From contig CAVTRC010000001.1 of assembly GCA_963737065.1 (NCBI GenBank), positions 2,304,001-2,368,000 on the forward strand: DNA of 64,000 nucleotides. The letters are read 5' to 3'. Shown here one piece after another: positions 2,401 to 54,663 of the stretch. Numbering within the stretch: position 1 is the stretch's first letter; each line of letters opens with the position of its first letter. The position numbers were made by a program, and so were the translations under genes. The DNA is from Candidatus Eremiobacteria bacterium. GTDB taxonomy: Bacteria > Vulcanimicrobiota > Vulcanimicrobiia > Vulcanimicrobiales > Vulcanimicrobiaceae. The notes under the pieces are model-generated. The model saw only the letters and a program-made list of their open reading frames with translations. It did not search any database and was not told the DNA's origin.

Positions 2401-3582
2401 TTACCGGTGCGCGATTCCGTCGGTAAATCGCTCTAGGTCCGCGAGAATCATCGCACGATGCTCGTCGAAAAGCGGCAGCTCGTGCAGCACGCCGCGCGCG
2501 TCCCACGTGCGCTCGATCATCGCTCGGACGTCTCTGCGCACGATCGACATCGGAAGACTTGCCCGGCGCGCGAAGCGGCGTAGCCTATCGTCATCGTAGA
2601 TCGCGCGATCTTTCGATTCACCAAACGATAAGGCAAGGTTATGATCGACGTTCGGATACGGAAGCGTGCTGACGTAGTCGTACGCCGGCGAAACCTGCGG
2701 TGTTCGCGCATCGCGATAGATCAGCGATGAGTTTTTTAAATGCATGTCGCCGTTGCCGATCATGGCATTGAACGTAATCCGGCGGATGAGTTCGCGCGCG
2801 TCGGTGAAGGCACCGCGCTCGTTCGTTAGTCGCACCATATCCGCGTACGTGTAATTTTTATATTTCTCATGCGGAAATTGCCCGAAGGCTTGATTGAAGT
2901 CTTCGGTGTGGACGCGCAGCGTGTCCGAAGCTCGATCGAAGCGTCGAATCGCAAACGCCATGCCTCGCACGTTGAAATCGGCGGGGATGCCGGTAATCTC
3001 GTCAATAGGCACAAGACGTATTTCCGGCACGTCGATTCCGGCAGCTTGCGCGAATCGCAGCATCGAGTATTCGTTCTCCGTGAGGCCCGGATAGTTGCCG
3101 GAGGACAGCTTTACGATCCAGTCGCCGCCGAGACCGTGCACGGGAATCGTCAATGCGTCTGTTTCCGTAAGCAGTGCACTGAGCTTCAATTGGACGCCGG
3201 GAAGGGAGAAGGTCAGCGCATCGCTAGGCGGCGGTGCAACTGGTTGCGATGGCGATAAGACAACCGCTCCGATCAAGTCTGCACCGAGATACGTCAGCAG
3301 CGGAAAGTCCCGCTCCGGCGAGACGTCCAGATGCTTGGCGATGAGGGTGCGAAGGCCACCTTCCGGGAGTAGGTTCGCGAAGAACGGAGGTGCGAGGCGG
3401 TGTGTCCGTCCTGTCGACTCGAGGACGGAGCCGTCATGAGACACGAACGATTGGCTAAGAACGGGACGGTCGTGGTCCGCAACGTACTCCGGCGTAAACG
3501 CGAATACGGTGGAGTCGTCCGGAAGGTTCGTCAGGTGTCCGACGAGCGTGTCGCGTAACGAGACAGCGAGGGTCTGAATCAC
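2401..3582 (-). CDS. hipA: HipA-family toxin kinase with N-terminal couple_hipA domain
   Basis: PPFFANLLPEG, SLPGVQLK, WIVKL, RRFDR, GNGDMHLKN, SPAYD motifs; GTG start overlaps the antitoxin stop (GTGA). Confidence 0.92.
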   Translation of the reverse strand: MIQTLAVSLRDTLVGHLTNLPDDSTVFAFTPEYVADHDRPVLSQSFVSHDGSVLESTGRTHRLAPPFFANLLPEGGLRTLIAKHLDVSPERDFPLLTYLGADLIGAVVLSPSQPVAPPPSDALTFSLPGVQLKLSALLTETDALTIPVHGLGGDWIVKLSSGNYPGLTENEYSMLRFAQAAGIDVPEIRLVPIDEITGIPADFNVRGMAFAIRRFDRASDTLRVHTEDFNQAFGQFPHEKYKNYTYADMVRLTNERGAFTDARELIRRITFNAMIGNGDMHLKNSSLIYRDARTPQVSPAYDYVSTLPYPNVDHNLALSFGESKDRAIYDDDRLRRFARRASLPMSIVRRDVRAMIERTWDARGVLHELPLFDEHRAMILADLERFTDGIAHR

Positions 3583-3827
3583 ACCGGCATACTTGCAATG
3601 ACCCCTTCGACGAGCCGCGTCGCTCGTTTCGGCACAAGCATCGGCGTCAAGTCCAGCGCCGCGGCCAGTTGGTGAAGGCGCGAGACACGCAGATCGGCGC
3701 CGCGTTCTACTTCGGAAAGCCACGCCTGGGTGACGCCTGCCCGCTCGGCGAGCTGCTTTTGCGTTAACCCAGCCCGTAGACGCGCTGCGCGGATCGCCTC
3801 CCCGCTATACGGAATGGCATATACCAC
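3579..3827 (-). CDS. hipB: XRE-family HTH antitoxin (HipB-like)
   Basis: AIRAARLRAGLTQKQLAERAGVTQAWLSEVERG HTH; coupled upstream of hipA. Confidence 0.85.
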   Translation of the reverse strand: MVYAIPYSGEAIRAARLRAGLTQKQLAERAGVTQAWLSEVERGADLRVSRLHQLAAALDLTPMLVPKRATRLVEGVIASMPV

Positions 3828-30179: not shown

Positions 30180-31521
30180 GTTCGCGTTCACTCCAGCCGC
30201 CGTCGCGAATCTTCAGCGCGGTTAGCGCGGCGCGCGCGCTCCATGCCATGATCCACGCGACCGGCACGCTGAAGAGCGCGAGATGAAGCCGCTCGATTCC
30301 GAGCCATGTCAACGGTAGAACGAACAGTCCGCATACGATTCCGACCGCCATCGAGAATCTCGTGTCGCCCGCCGCGCGGATTGGTGCGATGCCCACCATC
30401 GCCCACCCTTTGATCGGCATCGTAAGCATGTGCACGGCGAGCGGCAGCGCCGCAACGCTCGCGACGGCTGCATTCATCGTAAACAGAAATGACAGCGGCC
30501 AGGCGCAGACAGCGACGACCGCGCCGGTGAGCGTCGTGACGAGCAGCGTCGTGCGCAGCGCACGGTGCAGAAACATCGTCGCGCCTTCGGCGTCGCGGGC
30601 GCCCAGGCGCTGGCCGATGACCGTCTGCGTAGCGCTTTGCAATGGACCGGGAACGACGAACGTAAGGTCGGATACGACGTTGAGCGCGCGAAACGCGGCG
30701 ATGTAGATTGCGCCGAGCGGGGCGAGCATTGCGACGACCGCCATGTCGGGGCCGACGACCGCGAATCCGAAGACGCTTTCCGGAACGCCGAGCCACGCGC
30801 AACGCAACGCCAAGCGCCAGTCGATGGTAAACTGCGAGAACACCCGGTAGATTGGCTTGCGCGCAACGTAGATCACTGCAACGACCGCGGCGATCGTTTC
30901 CGAAATCAGCGTCGACACACCGGCGCCGACGATGCCATACGGGTGGCCCGTCAGCCACCCGAGCGCGAGCACAAGCACGAGCGGGATGTGAATGATGTTG
31001 ATGATCCCGAGCAAATACGCGCCGAGCTTTCGGTTTCCGGCCGCGCCAAGCCCGACGATCAACGTTGACGAGACATTGAACGGTATCAGTGATGCGCAAC
31101 GAACGATCAAATAGCCGGCGCTCGCATGGACCGAAGCGATGTGCGGCAGCATCAGCGTCAGTAGCGGGCGCGCACCGAAGAACGCAACGATCGTCACCGC
31201 AATAGAAGCGATCATCGGCACAGCGAATCCCGAACGTACCGTGCGTCCGAACCCATCGACGTCATGCGCACCGATGCGCTGAGCGGCGATGATACCGACA
31301 CCGCTCCACAAACCGCCGATCGTCATGATGATCGTGAACGTGACCGTAGTCGCAGCGGTGACGCCGGCGAGCGCAATGGTGCCTAGGTAGCCGATGGCGA
31401 TCGTGTCGACAACGCCGAGAACTTGGTCGCCGAGCATCTGTACGGCAAGCGGAACAGAAAGGCGCCGGAATGCGGCGCCTACTTTCGTGTGATCGACGAC
31501 CATGGAAGAAGCGGGCGTCAT
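30166..31521 (-). CDS. MATE-family efflux transporter
   Basis: VDTIAIGYLG, AAQRIGA, VIGQRLGA, RAAGDTR; about 12 hydrophobic segments. Confidence 0.9.
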   Translation of the reverse strand: MTPASSMVVDHTKVGAAFRRLSVPLAVQMLGDQVLGVVDTIAIGYLGTIALAGVTAATTVTFTIIMTIGGLWSGVGIIAAQRIGAHDVDGFGRTVRSGFAVPMIASIAVTIVAFFGARPLLTLMLPHIASVHASAGYLIVRCASLIPFNVSSTLIVGLGAAGNRKLGAYLLGIINIIHIPLVLVLALGWLTGHPYGIVGAGVSTLISETIAAVVAVIYVARKPIYRVFSQFTIDWRLALRCAWLGVPESVFGFAVVGPDMAVVAMLAPLGAIYIAAFRALNVVSDLTFVVPGPLQSATQTVIGQRLGARDAEGATMFLHRALRTTLLVTTLTGAVVAVCAWPLSFLFTMNAAVASVAALPLAVHMLTMPIKGWAMVGIAPIRAAGDTRFSMAVGIVCGLFVLPLTWLGIERLHLALFSVPVAWIMAWSARAALTALKIRDGGWSEREPIAA

Positions 31522-32663
31522 CGCAATCGGTCGAGCACCGCAAAAAAGCGGTCGATCTCCTCATCGGTGGTGTAGAAGTGGGGGCTGACGCGAATTCCGC
31601 AGCCCGGGCGATAGTCCACAAAAACCCGGTCCGCAATCAGTTGGTGGCAAACTCGCTCGGAATCTTCAAAATCGATTCCAATCCAGCCGGTTCGTTTCGC
31701 CGGATCGAGCGGTGAATTTACCGTGAGGTGACGCTCGAGTGCCATGTCGGCGAGCTTCGTCGTTAAACGCACGTTGTGTTCGCGAATATGTGCAACGCCG
31801 ATGCTGCGAATGAGGTCGTGGCCCGGCTTCGCTACGAGATACCCGGGAATCGTCGGCGTGCCGGTTCCGAAGCGATACATTGAAGATGCATATCGAATCG
31901 GCGCGTCTTCGAACGCAAACGGTGCGGCATGCGCCATCCAGCCGGTGACGGCTGGACGGAATCGTTCGAGCAGCGGCGGCTTCACATAAATCCAACCGCA
32001 CCCGGGCCCGCCGAGTAACCACTTGTGCGAACCGCCCGTGACGATATCCAAATCCCAGTCCGTCACGTCGTACGGATACGTTCCGGTCGTTTGATATGCA
32101 TCGACGCACAACAGCGCGCCGACCTTGCGGCAATGCGCCTGGATCGCTTGCACCTCGGCAAGCGCGCCGGACACGTAGTATGCGTGCGAAAGGACCGCGA
32201 TTTGCGTGCGCTCGGTTATCGCCTCAACGATCCGTTCCGTCGGGATCGTGCGTCCATCGTTCGAGCCCACGATGCGAACCGTCGCGCCGTACCGTTCCCA
32301 CTCGGTCCAGACATACGTCAGCGACGGGAATTGCAGCGCTTCGTACACGACTTCGTTGCGCTCGCCGCGAAAATCGAGCGACGTTGCGAGCGCCGCTTGC
32401 AACACCGAAACGTTCGGGCCGAGAAACACCGATCCGGGCGCGGCACCGATGATCGACCCGATGCCATCGCCGACGACCGCGATTTCCGGCAACCAGCGCT
32501 CCCATGCCTGGGGACCGTCTGTCGCCCACTCGTTCCAGTACGATTCGAGCGCGGCTTTCGCGCGCAGCGGCGCCGCGCCCATTGAATGATTCACCAGATA
32601 GGTGGCTGTTTCGAGGATCGGAAATTGATCGCGATGCAGCGCTTGCGTGGCCGTCGTCGTCAT
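31518..32663 (-). CDS. kynU: Kynureninase-like class V PLP enzyme
   Basis: YLVNHSMG, FPS, VDAYQ, GGSHKWLLGGPG, GWMAH, RVSPHFY; coupled to kynA. Confidence 0.72.
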   Translation of the reverse strand: MTTTATQALHRDQFPILETATYLVNHSMGAAPLRAKAALESYWNEWATDGPQAWERWLPEIAVVGDGIGSIIGAAPGSVFLGPNVSVLQAALATSLDFRGERNEVVYEALQFPSLTYVWTEWERYGATVRIVGSNDGRTIPTERIVEAITERTQIAVLSHAYYVSGALAEVQAIQAHCRKVGALLCVDAYQTTGTYPYDVTDWDLDIVTGGSHKWLLGGPGCGWIYVKPPLLERFRPAVTGWMAHAAPFAFEDAPIRYASSMYRFGTGTPTIPGYLVAKPGHDLIRSIGVAHIREHNVRLTTKLADMALERHLTVNSPLDPAKRTGWIGIDFEDSERVCHQLIADRVFVDYRPGCGIRVSPHFYTTDEEIDRFFAVLDRLR

Positions 32664-33442
32664 GACTGCGCGTAATTACCGGTGCCTAAGTGCGTCCGCA
32701 CCTCCCACAGTTCGGGGAAGAACCGGTGTCCGAGCGTGCGCTGTAGATACTCGGCGCCGGACGAACCCCCGGTGCCGATTCTATTTCCGATCATGCGCTC
32801 CACCATGCGGACATGCCGTCCGCGCCAAAGCAAGAAGCGCTCGTCGAACTCGATCAGATCCTCGAGGAGCAGATACAGATCGTAGTACTTGTCGGTGTCG
32901 ACGTAGATGCGGCGGAACGATTCGACCAATTCCTCGCTGGAATCGACCGCGAAACCACGCCGCTTCAGCAGTGCTTTGACGTGATCGTATAAGGACGGTT
33001 CCTGTGCCGCCCGTTCGAGCCGCGTCCGTTGTTCCTTGTCCATCGAAATATACTTCAGCGCCTCCGTGCGCCGCACACCGCATAGGAATTCCACTTCGCG
33101 AAACTGCACGGACTGAAAACCGCTCGCGGGGTTGAGATTGTCGCGAAACTCGTTAAACTCTTGCGGCGTCATGGTTTCCAAGACGTCGACTTGCTGTTCG
33201 AGCAGACGCTGAATCGTGTGAATGCGGCGGAAATACTTCGCGACGCGCAATAATTCATCACGATCGAGCGCGTCGACGACCGCGCGCAGTTCATGCAGCA
33301 CTTGCTTGAACCACAGCTCGTACACTTGATGAATCACGATAAAGAGGATTTCATCGTGATGTTCCGGGCTCGAGAGCGGACGTTGAAGGCCGACGAGTTC
33401 GTCGACCTTCAGATAAGAACTGTACGAGAGGCGGTCGTCCAT
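32660..33442 (-). CDS. kynA: Tryptophan 2,3-dioxygenase
   Basis: HDEILFIVIHQVYELWFKQ, SGFQSVQFREVE, VERMIG..GTGGSSG. Confidence 0.95.
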   Translation of the reverse strand: MDDRLSYSSYLKVDELVGLQRPLSSPEHHDEILFIVIHQVYELWFKQVLHELRAVVDALDRDELLRVAKYFRRIHTIQRLLEQQVDVLETMTPQEFNEFRDNLNPASGFQSVQFREVEFLCGVRRTEALKYISMDKEQRTRLERAAQEPSLYDHVKALLKRRGFAVDSSEELVESFRRIYVDTDKYYDLYLLLEDLIEFDERFLLWRGRHVRMVERMIGNRIGTGGSSGAEYLQRTLGHRFFPELWEVRTHLGTGNYAQS

Positions 33443-48125: not shown

Positions 48126-49049
48126 TCAGCTCTTCGCTGAGAGCCTTTCACGTCCGTGCGCTGATTGCAAATATTGCAACGGTCCGATCGGGACGATACG
48201 CGTCGGATTGATATCGTCGTGCGTCATGTAATAATGACGTTTGATGTGATCGAAATCGACGGTTTGCGCAATGCCGGGTACCTGGTAGAGGTCGCGTAAG
48301 TATCCGTAGAGGTTCGGATAATCGACGATGCGGCGAAGATTGCATTTGAAGTGACCGTAATAGACGGGATCGAAGCGGATCAACGTGACGAAGAGGCGCC
48401 AGTCAGTCTCAACCGGATGTGGACCGAAGAGATACCGCCGCGTCGCCAGACGCTGTTCGAGTTCATCGAGCGTCGCAAACACGCGGTAAGCAGCCTCTTC
48501 ATAGACCTCTTGCGCGGTTGCGAAGCCGGCGCGATAGACCCCGTCGTTAACCGTTTCGTAGATCACTGCATTGAGTGCATCGATTTCGGTCCGTAGATCG
48601 TAGGGATACAGATCCGGCAGCGGATCTCCGATCGCATTGAACTCCGTTTCGAACATACGCATGATATCGTCGTCGGAATTGCTCACGACGCGCTTCGTCT
48701 CCAGATCCCAGAGGACAGGAACGGTGACACGGCCGCGATACCGCGGTTCGCTCGCGAGGTACAGCTCGCTTAAAAAATGCGCGCCGTATCGCCATCCGCG
48801 TTCGTCGCGAATCGGATCCACGATCGTCATCGGGATCGCAGGTTCCAGGCGCTTGAGTTTGCGCGCAATGATCGTACGGTGTGCCCAAGGACAGGCTAGC
48901 GAAACGTACAATTGATAGCGCCCCGCGACGGCGCGAAATCCCGAGCTTCCATCGGCGCTCACCCAACTGCGAAAACGATCTTGTTGGCGGACGAACCGGC
49001 CGTCTTCGGATTGTTCCGCGGGGAATTGTGCTTTCGCCGGTGTTTCCAT
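48126..49049 (-). CDS. Glutathionyl-hydroquinone reductase (YqjG/omega-like GST)
   Basis: CPWAHR, VTVPVLWD, NDGVYRAGFA, RFDPVYYGHFKCN, HIKRHYY. Confidence 0.92.
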   Translation of the reverse strand: METPAKAQFPAEQSEDGRFVRQQDRFRSWVSADGSSGFRAVAGRYQLYVSLACPWAHRTIIARKLKRLEPAIPMTIVDPIRDERGWRYGAHFLSELYLASEPRYRGRVTVPVLWDLETKRVVSNSDDDIMRMFETEFNAIGDPLPDLYPYDLRTEIDALNAVIYETVNDGVYRAGFATAQEVYEEAAYRVFATLDELEQRLATRRYLFGPHPVETDWRLFVTLIRFDPVYYGHFKCNLRRIVDYPNLYGYLRDLYQVPGIAQTVDFDHIKRHYYMTHDDINPTRIVPIGPLQYLQSAHGRERLSAKS

Positions 49050-49136
49050 ACGCTGTTCAATTGGCAGACGTTGGGGGAAGTTGCTTTCGCGCACCTAAAA
49101 ACGGCGTAGCCGAAACTCTTTTCCAGGGAGGCTCGC

Positions 49137-49703
49137 TTGCTCAAGGGCTTTGTTCTCGGCATCGTTGCCGTCATCGTGATCGGGCTGATTGCGGCGTATG
49201 TCGGCATCACGCAGGGCCTCCTGATTCCAGCGAACGCCGACGCGCGCCCGGGCAAAATGGAAACGTGGGCGGCTCGCGTGTCGCTGCGCGCGACCTTGCG
49301 GCGACAAGCCTCGCGCAGTCCGAATCCCTTGCCGACGTCAATGCCCAATCTGCTCGACGGCATCAAATTGTACGGCGAAAACTGTTCGGTTTGCCATGGT
49401 GTTGCGGACGGACGCGCGAGCACGATTGCGCGCGGGCTCTATCAAAACGCGCCGCAACTCGCCAAAGACGGCGTGGAAGATGATCCGGACGGTATTACGT
49501 ATTGGAAGATCTATCACGGCATCCGGTTGACCGGTATGCCGTCATTCGGGGCAGCGCTTTCCGACAATCAAATCTGGGCACTTTCGCTCTTTCTGAAACA
49601 CATGGATAAACTTCCGCCGCAAGCAGAACGAGCGTGGAAGAATTTGAAAAATCCCGCACCGGCTGCGCCGGCGAGCGAGCACTCAAAGAAAGGCGGGCAG
49701 TAA
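49137..49703 (+). CDS. Membrane-anchored c-type cytochrome
   Basis: CSVCH heme motif, GIRLTGMPSF axial Met; TTG start with GGGAGG RBS. Confidence 0.88.
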   Translation: MLKGFVLGIVAVIVIGLIAAYVGITQGLLIPANADARPGKMETWAARVSLRATLRRQASRSPNPLPTSMPNLLDGIKLYGENCSVCHGVADGRASTIARGLYQNAPQLAKDGVEDDPDGITYWKIYHGIRLTGMPSFGAALSDNQIWALSLFLKHMDKLPPQAERAWKNLKNPAPAAPASEHSKKGGQ

Positions 49704-49704
49704 G

Positions 49705-50667
49705 TTGCTGATCGATGCGAGAACCGAAACACATATGCTAGACGTGGAACGGCTCGATCTGCGCGGGTTGCCCGTGTGGGAGCGTCCGACGCGCGTGCTC
49801 GACGTTTTCGACCGCTTGCCGCCGGGGCAAGCCGTCGTGTTCATCACCGAAAACGAGCCGCGTGGTCTAGGCACGCGCATCGAAGAGTCGCGCAAGCATG
49901 AATTGATTCTCGATACCCGGCGCGTCGGCGATCGTGAATGGCACGTCGTAATGACGCGAGCAGCCGTTGAGACCGATGCGCCCTCGCCGATGGGAATTCT
50001 CAAACGCTCACGCGTGTTCTCTCATCTCGACGAGGTCTCGCGTAGCAAGCTCGCCGCCGTTGCCACGCTGCATACCTCGCGCCGCGGACAGACCGTCGTC
50101 ATGGAAAACAGCGATTGGCCCTTCATCGGCGTCGCATTCGAAGGCGTCTTCGCGCTCGCGAGCCGGAACGGCACGTCACGCCAGCGGATCTTCCACGAAA
50201 TTTTTCCGTACGAAGTCTTCGGTGAACTCGAACTCTTCGACGGCGCGCCGACGATCGGACGCATCATCGTGCTTTCGAAAGCTGCGCGCTACTTGCGCTT
50301 GCCGAACGATGCCGTGTTGCAAATTGCCGAGCATTCGCCGAAGCTCTACGAGGCACTCGGCCGCGTTGCGGCGCAACACGCGCGCGACCTCGCCGAGTTG
50401 CTCGTCAATCAGAACACGATGCCGATCATCGCGCGTATCGCACAGGTGTTGCTGCCGTACGCAATGCCCGAGAAGGGACTGAGCGCGGCAATGCCGCCGC
50501 TCCCGAACATGACGCAGGCGCAGATCGCAGCGGCGGCCGGAACGGTAAAGGAAGTTGCTGCACGCGCGATCGCGGAGCTCGAATCGAAGAATTTACTCCG
50601 TCGCGAACGGGGGCATGTCCGGTATCTCGATCGTCAGGGCTTGATCGATCTGATACGCGAGTCGTAA
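49705..50667 (+). CDS. Crp/Fnr regulator with N-terminal DUF2249-like domain
   Basis: LDLRGLPVWER N-domain; FGELELFD; TQAQIAAAAGTVKEVAAR HTH. Confidence 0.85.
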   Translation: MLIDARTETHMLDVERLDLRGLPVWERPTRVLDVFDRLPPGQAVVFITENEPRGLGTRIEESRKHELILDTRRVGDREWHVVMTRAAVETDAPSPMGILKRSRVFSHLDEVSRSKLAAVATLHTSRRGQTVVMENSDWPFIGVAFEGVFALASRNGTSRQRIFHEIFPYEVFGELELFDGAPTIGRIIVLSKAARYLRLPNDAVLQIAEHSPKLYEALGRVAAQHARDLAELLVNQNTMPIIARIAQVLLPYAMPEKGLSAAMPPLPNMTQAQIAAAAGTVKEVAARAIAELESKNLLRRERGHVRYLDRQGLIDLIRES

Positions 50668-50679
50668 GGCCGCCGCCAA

Positions 50680-51438
50680 TCACCGCGGTTCGCGAGGTTT
50701 CGAGAGACCCAACCAAAACGTTTCAACGCCCGCGAGCATCACTGCGCCCGCGCGGATGAAACGTGCCGGCGAGAATCGCGGCTTTGCAAACGCGGCCGCG
50801 AGTTCGTCATCGGTGTGCGCAGCGTGCTGGTCCTCGAGCGCGTCGTGCCATGTCCAGAATCCCAGCGGGAGATCGGGCCGGCGCGTCGCTTTGATCGTGC
50901 GAAGGCCAAGAATCAACTGTTTCCAAAATCCGGCCGCCGCCCAATGTTCGATCGCGTACGACGCGCCGGCAGCAGTTGATTCATCGTGCGAGCCATACCA
51001 TTCCAGAAGCGTGTCGCAGAACGCGAGCGTCTCGGCCGAACCGTGTTCGCGTTTGCCGATCTCCTTCCACGTCAACCCGATCGATTCGGCGAATTGCACG
51101 AGCCATTCGAAGTGTCCGGCTTGAAACCTGAACGTGCCGCCTTCCACCGATCCGGTCGGCGAGAAGCCGACGCCGAGCTCATTCAGCAAAATCTCTTTGC
51201 CCGCGTGGTAACTCTCGAGGTCCGGTGCGTTGATGCACTTGCGCAATTGCGCCTCGATGAAGAGATGACTGAAGACTGAGAATTGCACCGTGAAGTGGCG
51301 CAGTTCGTCGTCGCTCGCGGCGCCCGTCGCAAACCACTCCGTGTACGGATTATGCTGTACGATCGGATGCGCTCCGATTTCCTCGTCGACGGCGCATCGA
51401 AACGCGTCGACTGCTGATGTGGGCGCTGCTGCGATCAT
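50680..51438 (-). CDS. Heme-oxygenase-like diiron (HDO; TenA/PqqC/CADD fold) enzyme of unknown function
   Basis: HP N-terminus; ligand pattern NE...H(FEW)...E(HW)...HxxxExxH; AGGAG RBS. Confidence 0.8.
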   Translation of the reverse strand: MIAAAPTSAVDAFRCAVDEEIGAHPIVQHNPYTEWFATGAASDDELRHFTVQFSVFSHLFIEAQLRKCINAPDLESYHAGKEILLNELGVGFSPTGSVEGGTFRFQAGHFEWLVQFAESIGLTWKEIGKREHGSAETLAFCDTLLEWYGSHDESTAAGASYAIEHWAAAGFWKQLILGLRTIKATRRPDLPLGFWTWHDALEDQHAAHTDDELAAAFAKPRFSPARFIRAGAVMLAGVETFWLGLSKPREPR

Positions 51439-51469
51439 GATCGATCTCCTGGTACAAAACAAGAGCAAT

Positions 51470-51500
51470 AAAAAAGCCGCCTCGCTGTCGGCGAGGCGGC
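51470..51500 (-). terminator. Intrinsic terminator (attenuator) upstream of the HDO gene
   Basis: GCCGCCTCGC-CGACA-GCGAGGCGGC-TTTTTT on the minus strand. Confidence 0.88.
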
Positions 51501-51524
51501 GTGTGTTCTAGCGGACGGTATTCG

Positions 51525-51602
51525 CTAAGACAACGGCAACCTGCAGCCGACTTCATCGAAGCGGCTGTAATAATACGAAACGGTTGCGGGCTGTCTGGAC
51601 AT
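51525..51602 (-). CDS. Tyr-rich attenuator leader peptide MSRQPATVSYYYSRFDEVGCRLPLS
   Basis: ATG..TAG of 25 codons with TAT TAT TAC, between promoter and terminator; below the ORF-track cutoff. Confidence 0.78.
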   Translation of the reverse strand: MSRQPATVSYYYSRFDEVGCRLPLS

Positions 51603-51614
51603 GGTTTAGCGAGG

Positions 51615-51643
51615 AGTCTAACATGAAGGACGCGGCAATGCAA
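51615..51643 (-). promoter_or_regulatory. Sigma70 promoter of the leader/HDO unit
   Basis: TTGCAT-N17-TAGACT with extended TG, 12 nt before the leader ATG. Confidence 0.7.
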
Positions 51644-51836
51644 TACATCGTCCGTCCTTGCGACGGCATGTTGCGGCTTCGCGTTCGCAGGTGCCACGTT
51701 TGCCGCGAACGGCCCGGCGGCGGGTCATGACCCAACCGATGTGTCGCGACGCTCAGGCGCAGGGAAAGCGCGATTCGCGTCGCAGCAGTCGCCGCACTGC
51801 CCGCACGCGGCATCGTGCTGCGTGGCCCGTTTTACA

Positions 51837-52190
51837 ATGAGTTTTTTCTTGAAGTGGCTGAAGGCGGAAACGACCGCGCACATCGGATTGCGTCCGCATC
51901 GCCTCGTTGAGCTGCCCGTTGACTTCGACACCGCGTACGGTCGCGTTCTCCACGCGATTGAAGTAACGCTCGGCGCGAACGTCTACATCGACGATCGCAA
52001 CGGCCGCTTTATCGAAGCGGGCTTCGGACTGGTGAACAACGAGCGCGTGCGCGTGAGCTTCGAAACCGAATCGGCGTTCGCAACTTGCGTGCGCGTCGAA
52101 GCGTACTTCCCCGCGGGCGCCAAAATTCCGAAGAAGTCCGCGGCGGTCGACGTATTAGCCGATACGCTCGAAGCCGGTATAACGGCGTAA
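51837..52190 (+). CDS. Hypothetical protein
   Basis: Globular-looking ORF from MSFFLKWLK filling the gap before serS. Confidence 0.6.
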   Translation: MSFFLKWLKAETTAHIGLRPHRLVELPVDFDTAYGRVLHAIEVTLGANVYIDDRNGRFIEAGFGLVNNERVRVSFETESAFATCVRVEAYFPAGAKIPKKSAAVDVLADTLEAGITA

Positions 52191-53438
52191 AACGTCCGGT
52201 ACTTCGATCGAGCCGTCGGCTTGTTGGTAATTTTCCATAATTGCAAGGAGCGTGCGGCCGACCGCGAGCCCCGAACCGTTCAGCGTATGCACGAGTTCGG
52301 GTTTCGACCTTGGATCGCGCCGAAAGCGGATCGATGCACGGCGCGCCTGGAAATCGGTGCAGTTCGAGCACGAACTGATTTCACGGTAGCCTTTCGAACT
52401 CGGCAACCACACTTCGAGGTCGTAGGTCTTCGCGGAATTGAAGCTGACGTCGCCCGCGCACAACGCCATGACGCGATGCGGAAGCCGAAGCTCCTCGAGG
52501 AGCGTGCGTGCGTCCTCGGTTAAGCGCTGGAGCGCCTCCAACGATTGCTCCGGTTGGGAAAGCCAAACGAGTTCTACTTTTTCGAACTGATGTTGACGAA
52601 TCAGTCCGCGGGTGTCTTTGCCGGCCGCACCCGCTTCTTTGCGGAAGCAAGGCGTATACGCCGTCATTTTCCGCGGCAGCGACTGAATATCCAGAATTTC
52701 GTCGCCATGCAACGCGGTCAGCGGAACTTCGGCCGTTGGAATCATGAACAGGTCCGCATCGCGGTCGATGAACATCGCATCGGAAAATTTCGAAAGCTGC
52801 CCGGTGCTCCACATCGTACCGCGCGAAACGAGCAGTGGAGGAATGACTTCGAGGTAACCGCGTTCGTTGGCGCGGTCCAAAAAATACTCCACGAGCGCGC
52901 GCGAGAGGCGCGCACCTTTCCCTTTCAAGATCGCAAAACGGCTGCCGGATAGCTTTGCGGCGCGTTCGAAGTCGAGAATGTCGAGCTCTTCGCCGAGTTC
53001 CCAATGCGGCTTCGGCGTGAACGGGAATTCGCGCGGCGTTCCCCACGAACGCACGCAGACGTTGTCTGCTTCGCCCGCTCCGTCGGGGACCGAGTCATCC
53101 AGAACGTTCGCCGTATTTTCTAGAAGCGATCGCAGCGTCGAGTCGGGATTATCGGGCGCGAGCGCCTTTGCACGTTCTTCATCGCGCGCGATCCGCTGCG
53201 AAAGCTCATCGAGCTTCGGCTTGAGATCCCGTGCCGCGGCGGCTTTATCCGGCGCTTTACCGATCTCGGCCGACAAGCGATTCTTCTCGGCTTTTGCCGT
53301 TTCGACGTTCGCAAGGGCGGAGCGGTACTCTGCGTCCAAGCGCAGAACGTCATCGACGAACGACGCATCATTCCCGCGACGCTGTGCCGACCGCCGAACG
53401 CGATCGGGATCGCGTCGTAGTAAAGCGATATCGAGCAT
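52155..53438 (-). CDS. serS: Serine--tRNA ligase
   Basis: MLDI start, PTAEVP, FRKEAG, RGLIRQHQFEKVE, YREISSCSNC, HTLNGSGLAVGR. Confidence 0.98.
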   Translation of the reverse strand: MLDIALLRRDPDRVRRSAQRRGNDASFVDDVLRLDAEYRSALANVETAKAEKNRLSAEIGKAPDKAAAARDLKPKLDELSQRIARDEERAKALAPDNPDSTLRSLLENTANVLDDSVPDGAGEADNVCVRSWGTPREFPFTPKPHWELGEELDILDFERAAKLSGSRFAILKGKGARLSRALVEYFLDRANERGYLEVIPPLLVSRGTMWSTGQLSKFSDAMFIDRDADLFMIPTAEVPLTALHGDEILDIQSLPRKMTAYTPCFRKEAGAAGKDTRGLIRQHQFEKVELVWLSQPEQSLEALQRLTEDARTLLEELRLPHRVMALCAGDVSFNSAKTYDLEVWLPSSKGYREISSCSNCTDFQARRASIRFRRDPRSKPELVHTLNGSGLAVGRTLLAIMENYQQADGSIEVPDVLRRYTGFERIG

Positions 53439-54663
53439 GGAACAGCGCGGCTTCGTCTTTCACTCAGAAAATCTTTTGTCGCCCGCGGATGCGATTGCGA
53501 CGTTTCTAGCGAGAATTTCACTCTCGCAGCGCGACGTCGAACGCGTGCCGTTAGATGACGCGCACGGCCGCGTTTTAGCCCAGGCGATCGATGCGGATTC
53601 CGACTATCCGAGCGCGCCGCGTTCGGCGATGGATGGTTTTGCGGTGCGCGCGGCAGATACGCCGGGAAGGCTGCACGTGCTCGGTGACGTACGCATGGGA
53701 GCCGCATGGCCGGCCGCAGTCGCATCCGGCACGGCGGTGCGGATTCCAACCGGAGGCGTCGTGCCCGACGGCGCAGATGCCGTTGTCCCGGTTGAAGATA
53801 CGATTCTCGAGGGCACATCGGTCGGCATATCGGACGGCGTTGCGGCGGGCGAGAACATCAACGAACGCGCGAGCGATATGCGTGCGGGCGAAGCAATACT
53901 CGACGCGGGTACGCGCATTACCGCACCGCACGCGGGATTGCTCGCAACCCTCGGTATCGTGAACGTTCCGGTGTACAAACGTCCGCGGATCGCGGTGCTT
54001 TCCAGCGGCGATGAACTCGTTGCGCCGGATGCCGTTCCAGTGCCGGGGCAAGTGCGCGACTCAAATCGCTTCGCAATCGCTGCGACGGTACGCGCGCTCG
54101 GCGCGGAGGCGGTTCACGTCCCGAGCGCTTCCGATGAACCCGGCGCGCTGGAACGCGCGTTACGCGACGCGCTTGCGAATGCGGACGCGGCGATACTCAC
54201 CGGCGGGTCGTCGGTCGGCGAACGCGATCGCACGCCATCGGCGATCGCATCGCTCGGTGCGCCGGGCGTGATCGTACACGGCGTGCGCGTGAAGCCCGGG
54301 AAACCGACCGTACTTGCGGCTATCGGCGCGCAACCGGTGATCGGTCTGCCGGGAAACCCGACGTCCGCCGTCATTATCTTGCAGGCAATCGTCCGTCCCG
54401 TGATCGACGCGATGACGGGCGCGCGATATCGGCCCGCAACCGTTGAAGCGCGTCTCGACGTCCCGGTTTCGAGCCGGCGTGGTTGGACCTGGTACGTTCC
54501 TGTGGCTGTAAAGAATGAAGGCAGCGAGCCCGTGGCGCATCCACTTCCTTTGCGCTCCTCGACGGTGAGCATCATCGCTCGCGCTGACGGATACATCGTT
54601 TTGCCGGAGGACGTCGAGGCATATCCTGCGGGAACACGCGTTCGCGTTACGCGATTTATTTAA
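53437..54663 (+). CDS. moeA: Molybdopterin molybdotransferase
   Basis: SAMDGFAV, IPTGG, SSGDEL, DSN, TGGSSVG, KPGKP, GLPGNP. Confidence 0.95.
   Translation: MEQRGFVFHSENLLSPADAIATFLARISLSQRDVERVPLDDAHGRVLAQAIDADSDYPSAPRSAMDGFAVRAADTPGRLHVLGDVRMGAAWPAAVASGTAVRIPTGGVVPDGADAVVPVEDTILEGTSVGISDGVAAGENINERASDMRAGEAILDAGTRITAPHAGLLATLGIVNVPVYKRPRIAVLSSGDELVAPDAVPVPGQVRDSNRFAIAATVRALGAEAVHVPSASDEPGALERALRDALANADAAILTGGSSVGERDRTPSAIASLGAPGVIVHGVRVKPGKPTVLAAIGAQPVIGLPGNPTSAVIILQAIVRPVIDAMTGARYRPATVEARLDVPVSSRRGWTWYVPVAVKNEGSEPVAHPLPLRSSTVSIIARADGYIVLPEDVEAYPAGTRVRVTRFI

Follow-up and report, generated by a model that had tools for sequence, protein, structure and literature searches.

A minus-strand gene of a Candidatus Eremiobacteria bacterium, situated in the 64,000-nucleotide stretch of DNA analysed here (the window), stands behind a short open reading frame (ORF) with a run of tyrosine (Tyr) codons followed by an intrinsic terminator, an arrangement that we read as a ribosome-mediated Tyr leader-peptide attenuator. 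The gene product is probably a dimetal oxygenase, with iron as the probable metal, that belongs to the heme-oxygenase-like HDO superfamily; its metal and its use of O2 are what we infer for it. Our preferred reading, to which we give a probability of about 0.4, is that this enzyme is a pterin-independent para-hydroxylase of phenylalanine (Phe) or phenylpyruvate, both the substrate and the product being deduced. The elements of the locus are as follows.

50680 to 51438, minus strand: HDO-family gene of 252 aa, with its ATG at 51438-51436 (ORF list and translation)
51446 to 51450, minus strand: Shine-Dalgarno sequence AGGAG of the HDO gene, read from the sequence
51470 to 51500, minus strand: intrinsic terminator of the attenuator, with a stem-loop at 51500-51476 followed by TTTTTT at 51475-51470 (terminator scan)
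51486 to 51553, minus strand: predicted antiterminator, formed, with the ribosome stalled at the Tyr codons, by a segment 3' of them and the 5' arm of the terminator
51525 to 51602, minus strand: leader peptide ORF of 25 codons plus stop, MSRQPATVSYYYSRFDEVGCRLPLS, read from the sequence

The leader ORF carries three consecutive Tyr codons, TAT TAT TAC, at 51575-51567. Taking at least three consecutive Tyr in a short upstream ORF as the criterion, runs of 3-6 Tyr codons were found upstream of the gene in 58 of 77 related loci from Eremiobacterota and Melainabacteria versus 2 of 4148 control windows, which excludes chance as its origin. Eleven further loci have variant leaders, four of them Tyr-rich with interruptions and seven of a YLIGSYQY type. 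Tyr makes up 19.8% of all leader residues, and its two codons show no clear skew (TAT 159 and TAC 131 in the leaders; TAT 143 and TAC 189 in the window genes). No Shine-Dalgarno sequence is obvious before the leader ATG, and the promoter scan identified no promoter for the leader: the sole minus-strand match has a -10 hexamer, TATTAT, that overlies the Tyr codons themselves and was taken as spurious. Positions 49000-53500, searched against Rfam at E <= 1, contained no riboswitch, T-box or known leader, the only match being a chance snoRNA within a coding region.

The terminator stem of the window has 10 pairs, 9 of them G-C, and the fold z-score is -3.87. A terminator of 7-12 pairs with a T-run is present in all 61 leaders (61/61), and in an alignment of 41 leaders its helix is 97.6% paired and 3 of its pairs vary in a compensatory manner. 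When co-transcriptional folding was modelled with a stalled ribosome, the window leader reached -27.7 kcal/mol with 9 of 10 arm bases sequestered; across the leaders, the 5' arm of the terminator was sequestered in 59/61 when the ribosome stood at the Tyr run versus 5/61 when it had reached the stop codon. The switch is visible in this co-transcriptional test only, for equilibrium folds with a stalled ribosome kept the terminator in 49/61 leaders, including most of those from Eremiobacterota, and lost it in 12/61. Projected on the columns of the alignment, the window antiterminator is 56.7% paired, a figure to be read in the light of a MAFFT alignment that is not structure-aware. The Tyr attenuator proposed in the initial annotation is thus borne out by the leader ORF, the terminator and the Tyr runs of 58/77 loci, and the antiterminator is predicted by the folding models. 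When Tyr-tRNA is scarce, the ribosome would stall at the leader Tyr codons, the antiterminator would form and the HDO gene would be transcribed; when Tyr is plentiful, a ribosome reaching the leader stop codon would allow the terminator to form and end transcription. The textbook attenuators trpL, pheL, hisL, thrL and leuL likewise combine a short ORF, in which codons for the amino acid that is sensed stand in a row, with a T-run terminator and a ribosome-selected antiterminator, pheL-pheA being the nearest case. The present element differs from them in sensing Tyr, in matching no Rfam family, in controlling a single gene of uncharacterised function, in its leader ATG without an obvious Shine-Dalgarno sequence, and in its hosts, which are Eremiobacterota and Melainabacteria rather than Proteobacteria.

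The next gene downstream of the HDO gene (49705-50667, plus strand) is convergent, and the HDO gene is therefore the only one behind the attenuator in the window. The claim that it stands alone there holds for the window and for most relatives, but not for 8 loci in which another gene of the same orientation comes after it. In L025, L028, L034 and L035 this second gene encodes a dehydrogenase of the ornithine-cyclodeaminase/mu-crystallin family, and in L067-L070 a group II decarboxylase-like enzyme dependent on PLP, which most resembles tyrosine decarboxylase models, at 128-158 bits, far below the cut-off of 299. Both kinds of partner could add an amino group to a keto acid. No reductase is conserved beside the HDO gene, no pterin-recycling gene was seen nearby, and the annotated neighbourhoods contain neither a conserved transporter nor an analogue-related gene. 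A tblastn search of the local DNA alone (the window and 80 flanks) with E. coli TyrA, PheA and AroF gave no match. The Tyr content of the HDO family (median 1.6%) is slightly lower than that of the window genes (median 2.3%), which is weak evidence.

The 252-aa product contains all the motifs listed in the initial annotation, namely LNELGV (N86-E87), GHFEW (108-112), AIEH (162-165) and WHDALEDQH (197-205). Its AlphaFold2 model (pLDDT 95.3, pTM 0.91) is an all-helical heme-oxygenase-like fold, and a Foldseek search of the PDB with this model returned 46 matches at E <= 1e-3, every one of the HDO, PqqC or TenA type, with TM scores of up to 0.74. CtCADD, PqqC, BesC and HrmI lead, followed by HamA, PolF, FlcD, UndA, SznF and RohS. 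The protein shares the seven-helix bundle of characterised HDOs (CtCADD/NePabS, BesC, HrmI, UndA, SznF, PolF, FlcD and RohS) at TM 0.60-0.74, although its identity to all solved relatives is only 10-19%. The candidate metal ligands E87, H109, E164, H198, E202 and H205, which supply the three histidines and three carboxylates of the HDO superfamily, are invariant in the alignment of closer relatives and form a complete set in 88/89 sequences, H109 being the one residue that is absent once (88/89) while the other five occur in 89/89. In the family profile, whose best match is 4-aminobenzoate synthase (9pj4), H109, E164 and the helix H198-x3-E202-x2-H205 align with the H, E and HxxxD/ExxH of 9pj4 and BesC. 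The ligand residues of these two structures are presumed, in part from the description in a review. The fold, the PDB matches and the conserved ligand set all agree with the earlier description of an HDO-like helical protein. Further residues invariant in the family are H24, N30, Q52, K67, W112, T137, W166, H208 and E212.

The sole Pfam match of the protein is PF14518 (Haem_oxygenas_2; E = 1.4e-5), at 25.4 bits just below the 28.9-bit cut-off of PF14518.11, while the precomputed Pfam label of the same protein is PF14518.12. Neither Biopterin_H nor PDH_N was matched in the Pfam search, a single-sequence search of the PDB gave nothing meaningful, and the ESM Atlas returned generic TenA/PqqC/PF14518 clusters only. 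The part of the literature covered includes no paper that deals with this HDO family, with leader peptides for Tyr or with an absence of tyrA from these phyla, and the words searched for do not occur in the passages of PMC4040986.

Among species-representative genomes we counted 548 relatives, and identity within the family is 60-82%, across three phyla. Relatives occur in Eremiobacterota, Melainabacteria, Actinomycetota (Acidimicrobiia) and haptophyte and stramenopile algae. Some of the algal proteins carry a cytochrome b5 domain. Such a domain lies N-terminally in P0123 and P0184 and is given by precomputed annotation for P0271 and P0317. In P0388 the HDO part is fused to a mu-crystallin-family dehydrogenase, and in the more distant P0394 and P0396 it is joined to a homogentisate-dioxygenase-like domain. 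An apparent fusion with 4-hydroxyphenylpyruvate dioxygenase, P0392, turned out to be two adjacent genes read through across a frameshift, and no additional domain could be recognised in P0390 (933 aa).

The Actinomycetota loci lack the attenuator and offer a second, independent context. Of the 7 loci of this type, 6 have a divergent Lrp/AsnC regulator before the HDO gene, and 6 have a gene for 4-hydroxyphenylpyruvate dioxygenase directly downstream of it (TIGR01263, E = 5e-123, for that of L076). A homogentisate dioxygenase-like gene is present in 4 of the 7 loci and fumarylacetoacetase in 3, and these clusters also include a maleylpyruvate-isomerase-family gene and an AMP-binding ligase. In L072 and L078 a class II DAHP synthase adjoins the regulator, which hints at a link with biosynthesis.

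Taken together, the Tyr attenuator and the homogentisate cluster point to the node that leads from Phe or prephenate to Tyr or 4-hydroxyphenylpyruvate. That the enzyme supplies Tyr, as had been suggested at the outset, is consistent with the direction of the attenuator, because a ribosome stalled at Tyr codons favours the antiterminator, and with an independent association, since in Actinomycetota the same family is linked to the homogentisate pathway and its 4-hydroxyphenylpyruvate dioxygenase. With O2 and two external electrons, the enzyme would hydroxylate L-phenylalanine in the para position, giving tyrosine, or phenylpyruvate, giving 4-hydroxyphenylpyruvate. This is the sole reaction that would be useful both in Tyr starvation and at the head of Phe/Tyr catabolism. 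It would then act as a non-homologous, pterin-independent analogue of the phenylalanine hydroxylase PhhA, supplying Tyr on demand in Eremiobacterota and Melainabacteria and feeding Phe into the homogentisate pathway in Acidimicrobiia. In Pseudomonas and Legionella, PhhA genes lie beside hpd genes. Like PhhA, the enzyme would both supply Tyr and open the homogentisate route, beside 4-hydroxyphenylpyruvate dioxygenase; unlike PhhA, to which it has no relation in sequence or fold, it is expected to have a dimetal centre instead of a mononuclear Fe with tetrahydropterin. We know of no Tyr leader-peptide control of phhA. The cytochrome b5 domains of some relatives, as predicted from their sequences, may fit the electron demand of a hydroxylase. 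Against a hydroxylase stand the absence of a conserved adjacent reductase, the link with DAHP synthase, and the second genes of the mu-crystallin and PLP families, which fit a keto-acid product, including that of a prephenate route, better than the conversion of Phe to Tyr. The available parts of a 2026 HDO review, which covers about a dozen validated HDOs and names N-oxygenation, C-C cleavage, desaturation and the formation of azetidines and alkynes, include neither aromatic hydroxylation, a further point against the hydroxylase, nor prephenate decarboxylation. According to the same parts of the review, the substrates of most characterised HDOs are free amino acids or fatty acids. The present proteins differ from these HDOs in forming a separate, tightly conserved family with invariant residues of its own, and in occurring in contexts of primary metabolism (the Tyr attenuator and the homogentisate cluster), not in natural-product clusters.

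The main rival to a para-hydroxylase, which we regard as rather unlikely, is an O2-dependent, non-homologous replacement for TyrA that would act by UndA-like oxidative decarboxylation, taking prephenate to 4-hydroxyphenylpyruvate or arogenate to tyrosine. A Tyr attenuator before a single enzyme gene is what would be expected of the committed step of the Tyr branch, repressed by Tyr, and E. coli tyrA itself adjoins the attenuator-controlled pheL-pheA. The structural matches include UndA, which performs oxidative decarboxylation; the strong conservation of the family over three phyla would suit a core biosynthetic enzyme; the DAHP synthase of L072 and L078 is adjacent; the 4-hydroxyphenylpyruvate dioxygenase downstream would consume the product; and the needed amination could come from the mu-crystallin-family dehydrogenase (4 loci, besides the fusion) or the PLP enzyme (4 loci). 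With amination-type partners present in two clades, a keto-acid variant and a TyrA-like variant stay in contention. However, the Actinomycetota gene lies in an operon with a full set for homogentisate degradation and an Lrp/AsnC regulator, where a TyrA replacement would be futile since the 4-hydroxyphenylpyruvate made from prephenate would just be degraded, and the annotated flanks searched contained no aro gene, be it for chorismate mutase, prephenate dehydratase or another step. The protein also departs from TyrA in having no PDH_N match, in using O2 and not NAD(P)+, as it would on this account, and in its occurrence in catabolic operons. The catabolic homogentisate context favours ring hydroxylation of the PhhA kind over oxidative decarboxylation of prephenate, and any relation of the HDO enzyme to PhhA or TyrA would be one of functional analogy only.

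A Tyr attenuator would also be compatible with an enzyme that acts on some other aromatic compound and so restores the charging of Tyr-tRNA, for example by neutralising a toxic tyrosine analogue, a competitor at TyrRS, or by salvaging a 4-hydroxyphenyl compound, or with one that is merely co-regulated and has nothing to do with Tyr supply; we consider this unlikely. Attenuators answer any shortage of charged tRNA, those caused by antimetabolites included. The tyrosine-decarboxylase-like partner in L067-L070 sits uneasily with a role confined to Tyr supply, and HDO chemistry, in the parts of the 2026 review available, is very diverse. Such an enzyme would nevertheless have to account for a Tyr attenuator in two phyla together with the position of the gene before that of 4-hydroxyphenylpyruvate dioxygenase in a third, and the conserved transporter or analogue-related gene that might accompany it is missing from the annotated neighbourhoods. 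Far less probable still is a known function of the HDO/TenA clan, be it that of a self-sacrificing CADD-type p-aminobenzoate synthase, of PqqC or of a TenA thiaminase II, even though CtCADD and PqqC are the best structural matches, 4-aminobenzoate synthase is the best profile match, and some sources name relatives automatically as 'PqqC' or 'Thiaminase-2/PQQC domain'. The initial annotation had held that an assignment of this kind would count against its proposal, and the CADD, PqqC and TenA assignments all failed the model tests: the protein reaches 18.5 of the 200 bits that NCBIfam TIGR04305 (CADD) requires, and PF03070 (TENA_THI-4/PqqC) is not matched at E <= 0.01. In addition to the low identity to every solved relative, no folate, pqq or thiamine genes occur in the annotated neighbourhoods, and a self-sacrificing enzyme that consumes Tyr would make no sense if induced by Tyr shortage.

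To our knowledge, Tyr is made by two routes only, the dehydrogenation of prephenate or arogenate by the TyrA family and the pterin-dependent hydroxylation of Phe. Were a diiron HDO to perform one of these two tasks, it would represent a third way of making Tyr, with no homology to the others; the known reactions of HDOs would be extended by aromatic hydroxylation or by the aromatisation of prephenate, and a metabolic step would be filled for the poorly known phyla Eremiobacterota and Melainabacteria. The Tyr leader peptide would represent a new class of attenuator outside Proteobacteria, and a physiological role would have been assigned to an uncharacterised protein from regulation alone. It is possible, but in our view doubtful, that Eremiobacterota and aerobic Melainabacteria, together with the Acidimicrobiia and algae that have relatives, obtain Tyr solely through the HDO enzyme in place of both TyrA and PhhA; if so, Tyr biosynthesis in these organisms would be obligately aerobic and under a previously undescribed Tyr leader-peptide attenuator.

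The gene for the predicted dimetal oxidase/oxygenase of heme-oxygenase-like fold (HDO) is preceded on its own strand by a tyrosine leader peptide and a terminator, in the following arrangement:

51602-51525, minus strand: leader-peptide ORF of 25 codons (MSRQPATVSYYYSRFDEVGCRLPLS), upstream of the HDO gene
51575-51567, minus strand: Tyr codons TAT TAT TAC of the leader
51500-51476, minus strand: terminator hairpin of 10 pairs (9 G-C)
51475-51470, minus strand: T-run TTTTTT, 32 nt ahead of the HDO start codon
51450-51446, minus strand: Shine-Dalgarno sequence AGGAG of the HDO gene
50680-51438, minus strand: HDO gene, a 252-codon ORF with its ATG start at 51438
49705-50667, plus strand: regulator (DUF2249 fused to cyclic-nucleotide-binding and Crp-type HTH domains), convergent to the HDO gene

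The initial annotation described the HDO gene as the only one behind the Tyr attenuator, and within the window this is the case, since the next downstream gene (49705-50667) is convergent. The attenuator region folded better than shuffled sequence (z = -3.87), and an Rfam search of it matched no family. Opposite the leader, the plus strand carries an ORF of 35 codons (51623-51730; MKDAAMQYIV...) that has a good AGGAG, followed by a 117-aa ORF without family match (51837-52190, plus) that overlaps the serS 3' end; the attenuator may share the divergent promoter region.

All the motifs originally read from the protein were found (N86-E87, GHFEW at 108-112, AIEH at 162-165 and WHDALEDQH at 197-205). 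Its sole Pfam match was PF14518 (Haem_oxygenas_2, "iron-containing redox enzyme"; E=1.4e-5), at 25.4 bits slightly under the cut-off of 28.9 bits, and its only NCBIfam match, to CADD, was very weak (18.5 bits vs a cut-off of 200). A single-sequence search against PDB sequences gave no match. The AlphaFold2 model, built from a 41-sequence alignment, was all-helical (pLDDT 95.3, pTM 0.91), and Foldseek returned 46 PDB matches at E<=1e-3, every one heme-oxygenase-like: CtCADD (TM 0.69-0.72), HrmI (TM 0.73), PqqC, BesC, HamA, PolF, FlcD, UndA, SznF, RohS and TenA proteins, at 10-19% sequence identity. The family profile matched 4-aminobenzoate synthase 9pj4 (E=6e-5) and BesC (E=1.8e-4), and in the profile alignment H109, E164 and H198-x3-E202-x2-H205 pair with the H, E and HxxxD/ExxH of both. 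In an alignment of 89 sequences (the window protein, those of 80 related loci and 8 further proteins, algal ones included), E87, E164, H198, E202 and H205 are invariant (89/89), as are H24, N30, Q52, K67, W112, T137, W166, H208 and E212, while H109 is kept in 88, the exception being locus L070 (L). Given the modelled fold and the conserved candidate ligand residues, the window protein has the HDO-superfamily fold and 3-His/3-carboxylate signature; it lies outside every characterised HDO subfamily.

The family comprises 3282 near-length relatives at E<=1e-3 (90% clusters), or 388 clusters at the 50% level; the best 120 of the 3282 share 66-100% identity and are nearly all unnamed or "hypothetical". 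Species-representative genomes yielded 548 relatives, of which the best 80 were compared as loci (L numbers below). These are labelled mostly Eremiobacterota/Vulcanimicrobiota, with 10 Melainabacteria/Obscuribacterales/"Cyanobacteria" and 6 Actinomycetota/Acidimicrobiia. Two labels are contradicted by the locus content: L028 is labelled Acidiferrales, yet shares its leader start and partner gene with the Eremiobacterota locus L025, and L050 is labelled Flavobacterium psychrophilum, yet its leader peptide is identical to that of the Melainabacteria locus L045, which suggests mis-binned contigs.

Of the loci compared, 77 reach at least 300 nt upstream of the gene. In 58 of them a short ORF no more than 450 nt upstream contains 3-6 Tyr codons in a row, vs 2 of 4148 control windows from those same loci; the runner-up residue run was Arg (23 loci). 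Four more loci (L002, L036, L058, L062) have interrupted Tyr-rich leaders, and in seven a variant leader, MFAPAYLIGSYQYRS..., is followed by a terminator. Tyr makes up 19.8% of residues across 62 leaders. The leader was absent from the seven Actinomycetota-type loci of the 77, and in L051, from a cyanobacterial MAG, the leader position directly upstream of the HDO gene is taken by the reverse transcriptase/maturase of a group II intron (172-1599).

A terminator of 7-12 pairs abuts a T-run in all 61 leaders analysed, and in an alignment of 41 leaders its helix is 97.6% paired, with compensatory changes at three pairs. When a ribosome was placed on the Tyr run, the equilibrium fold retained the terminator in 49/61. 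As attenuation is kinetic, folding was also stopped before the transcript reached the 3' arm. A ribosome placed on the Tyr run then left the terminator 5' arm paired with upstream sequence in 59/61 leaders (mostly at -18 to -31 kcal/mol), as against only 5/61 for a ribosome at the leader stop codon. This difference follows the logic of classical attenuation, with predicted read-through at Tyr shortage. Projected onto the columns of the leader alignment, which is not structure-aware, the window antiterminator reaches only 56.7% pairing.

Behind the leader, the HDO gene usually stands alone, the nearest downstream ORFs being heterogeneous or convergent (scanned in 64 of the 78 loci having one; the other 14 were annotated separately or are near-duplicates). 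The DUF2249-Crp regulator keeps its convergent position in six other Eremiobacterota loci (L018, L041, L042, L049, L058, L065), and a convergent fatty-acid-hydroxylase-family gene is nearest in three. An ornithine-cyclodeaminase/mu-crystallin-family dehydrogenase gene overlaps the HDO stop codon by 3-48 nt in L025, L028, L034 and L035, and L067-L070 have a group II PLP decarboxylase-like gene 11-37 nt further on, its best NCBIfam matches being tyrosine decarboxylase models, far under their cut-offs. No aromatic amino acid genes were found in the window or in the 8-kb flanks of six Melainabacteria loci (L045, L046, L047, L067, L070 and the shorter contig L071), and tblastn of E. coli TyrA, PheA and AroF over the window and loci flanks gave no match. 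Elsewhere in the window are a tandem of tryptophan 2,3-dioxygenase and kynureninase-like genes, both for Trp degradation, with a MatE exporter after them (31521-33442, minus), and a gene for a HipA-type kinase toxin that has the N- as well as the C-terminal HipA domain (2404-3723, minus). The Obscuribacterales loci L045 (1617-7526) and L046 (1971-7692) have a complete urate-degradation set (uricase, HIU hydrolase, OHCU decarboxylase, allantoicase, an amidohydrolase and DUF6986) just ahead of the Tyr leader.

In the seven Actinomycetota-type loci, 4-hydroxyphenylpyruvate dioxygenase directly follows the HDO gene in six (L076: TIGR01263, E=5e-123) and six have a divergent Lrp/AsnC regulator; a homogentisate-dioxygenase-like gene (4/7), fumarylacetoacetase (3/7), mycothiol-type maleylpyruvate isomerase and an AMP-binding ligase also lie nearby, and L072 and L078 have a class II DAHP synthase there as well. 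In an Actinobacteria MAG, another PF14518 protein (E=5.9e-12), distinct from the HDO, is encoded some 4.4 kb upstream of the paired HDO and dioxygenase genes (L079:2843-3610). Among more distant protein relatives, known from metagenome gene calls, P0394 and P0396 apparently combine the HDO and a homogentisate-dioxygenase-like domain in one protein (40% identity to the L076 gene), and P0388 apparently the HDO and a mu-crystallin-family domain; P0392 was rejected as an HDO-dioxygenase fusion, being a frameshifted read-through of two adjacent genes. An N-terminal cytochrome b5 domain is apparently joined to P0123 and P0184, and P0271 and P0317 bear the same precomputed label. The family reaches eukaryotic algae, with named relatives on this branch from Prymnesium parvum, Emiliania huxleyi and Chrysophaeum taylorii, and some relatives (in the set P0123, P0184, P0271, P0317; P0309, P0312, P0332) have a ~50-residue insertion after residue 93.

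By the logic of the Tyr attenuator, the HDO product is needed during a shortage of Tyr-tRNA; the predicted direction of control rules out a Tyr-consuming reaction. The Actinomycetota operons point to an enzyme of Phe/Tyr breakdown that acts at 4-hydroxyphenylpyruvate or immediately ahead of it. Since identity across three phyla is 56-64%, one function is likely common to the whole family. We tentatively prefer (probability about 0.4) a pterin-independent analogue of phenylalanine 4-hydroxylase (PhhA), para-hydroxylating Phe to Tyr or phenylpyruvate to 4-hydroxyphenylpyruvate, because this would serve both contexts; the apparent cytochrome b5 fusions agree with a need for external electrons.

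The main rival, also raised in the initial annotation, is a possible TyrA analogue that would use O2 to decarboxylate prephenate or arogenate oxidatively. In its favour are the partner genes of amination type, the neighbouring DAHP synthase genes and the strong conservation of the family; against it, producing 4-hydroxyphenylpyruvate from prephenate within a degradation operon would be futile. Action on other substrates is slightly less probable than this rival, and a known CADD, PqqC or TenA function most improbable. The family very probably acts at the node from Phe/prephenate to Tyr/4-hydroxyphenylpyruvate.

The available text of a 2026 HDO mini-review (PMC13108848) counts about a dozen validated HDOs, and its list there includes no aromatic hydroxylase or prephenate-using enzyme; among the records returned by literature searches, no paper dealt with this HDO family or with a Tyr leader peptide. 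The Tyr attenuator and HDO gene are a real, strongly conserved regulatory/enzymatic unit, which pairs a new class of leader-peptide attenuator, predicted to sense Tyr, with an uncharacterised HDO family.
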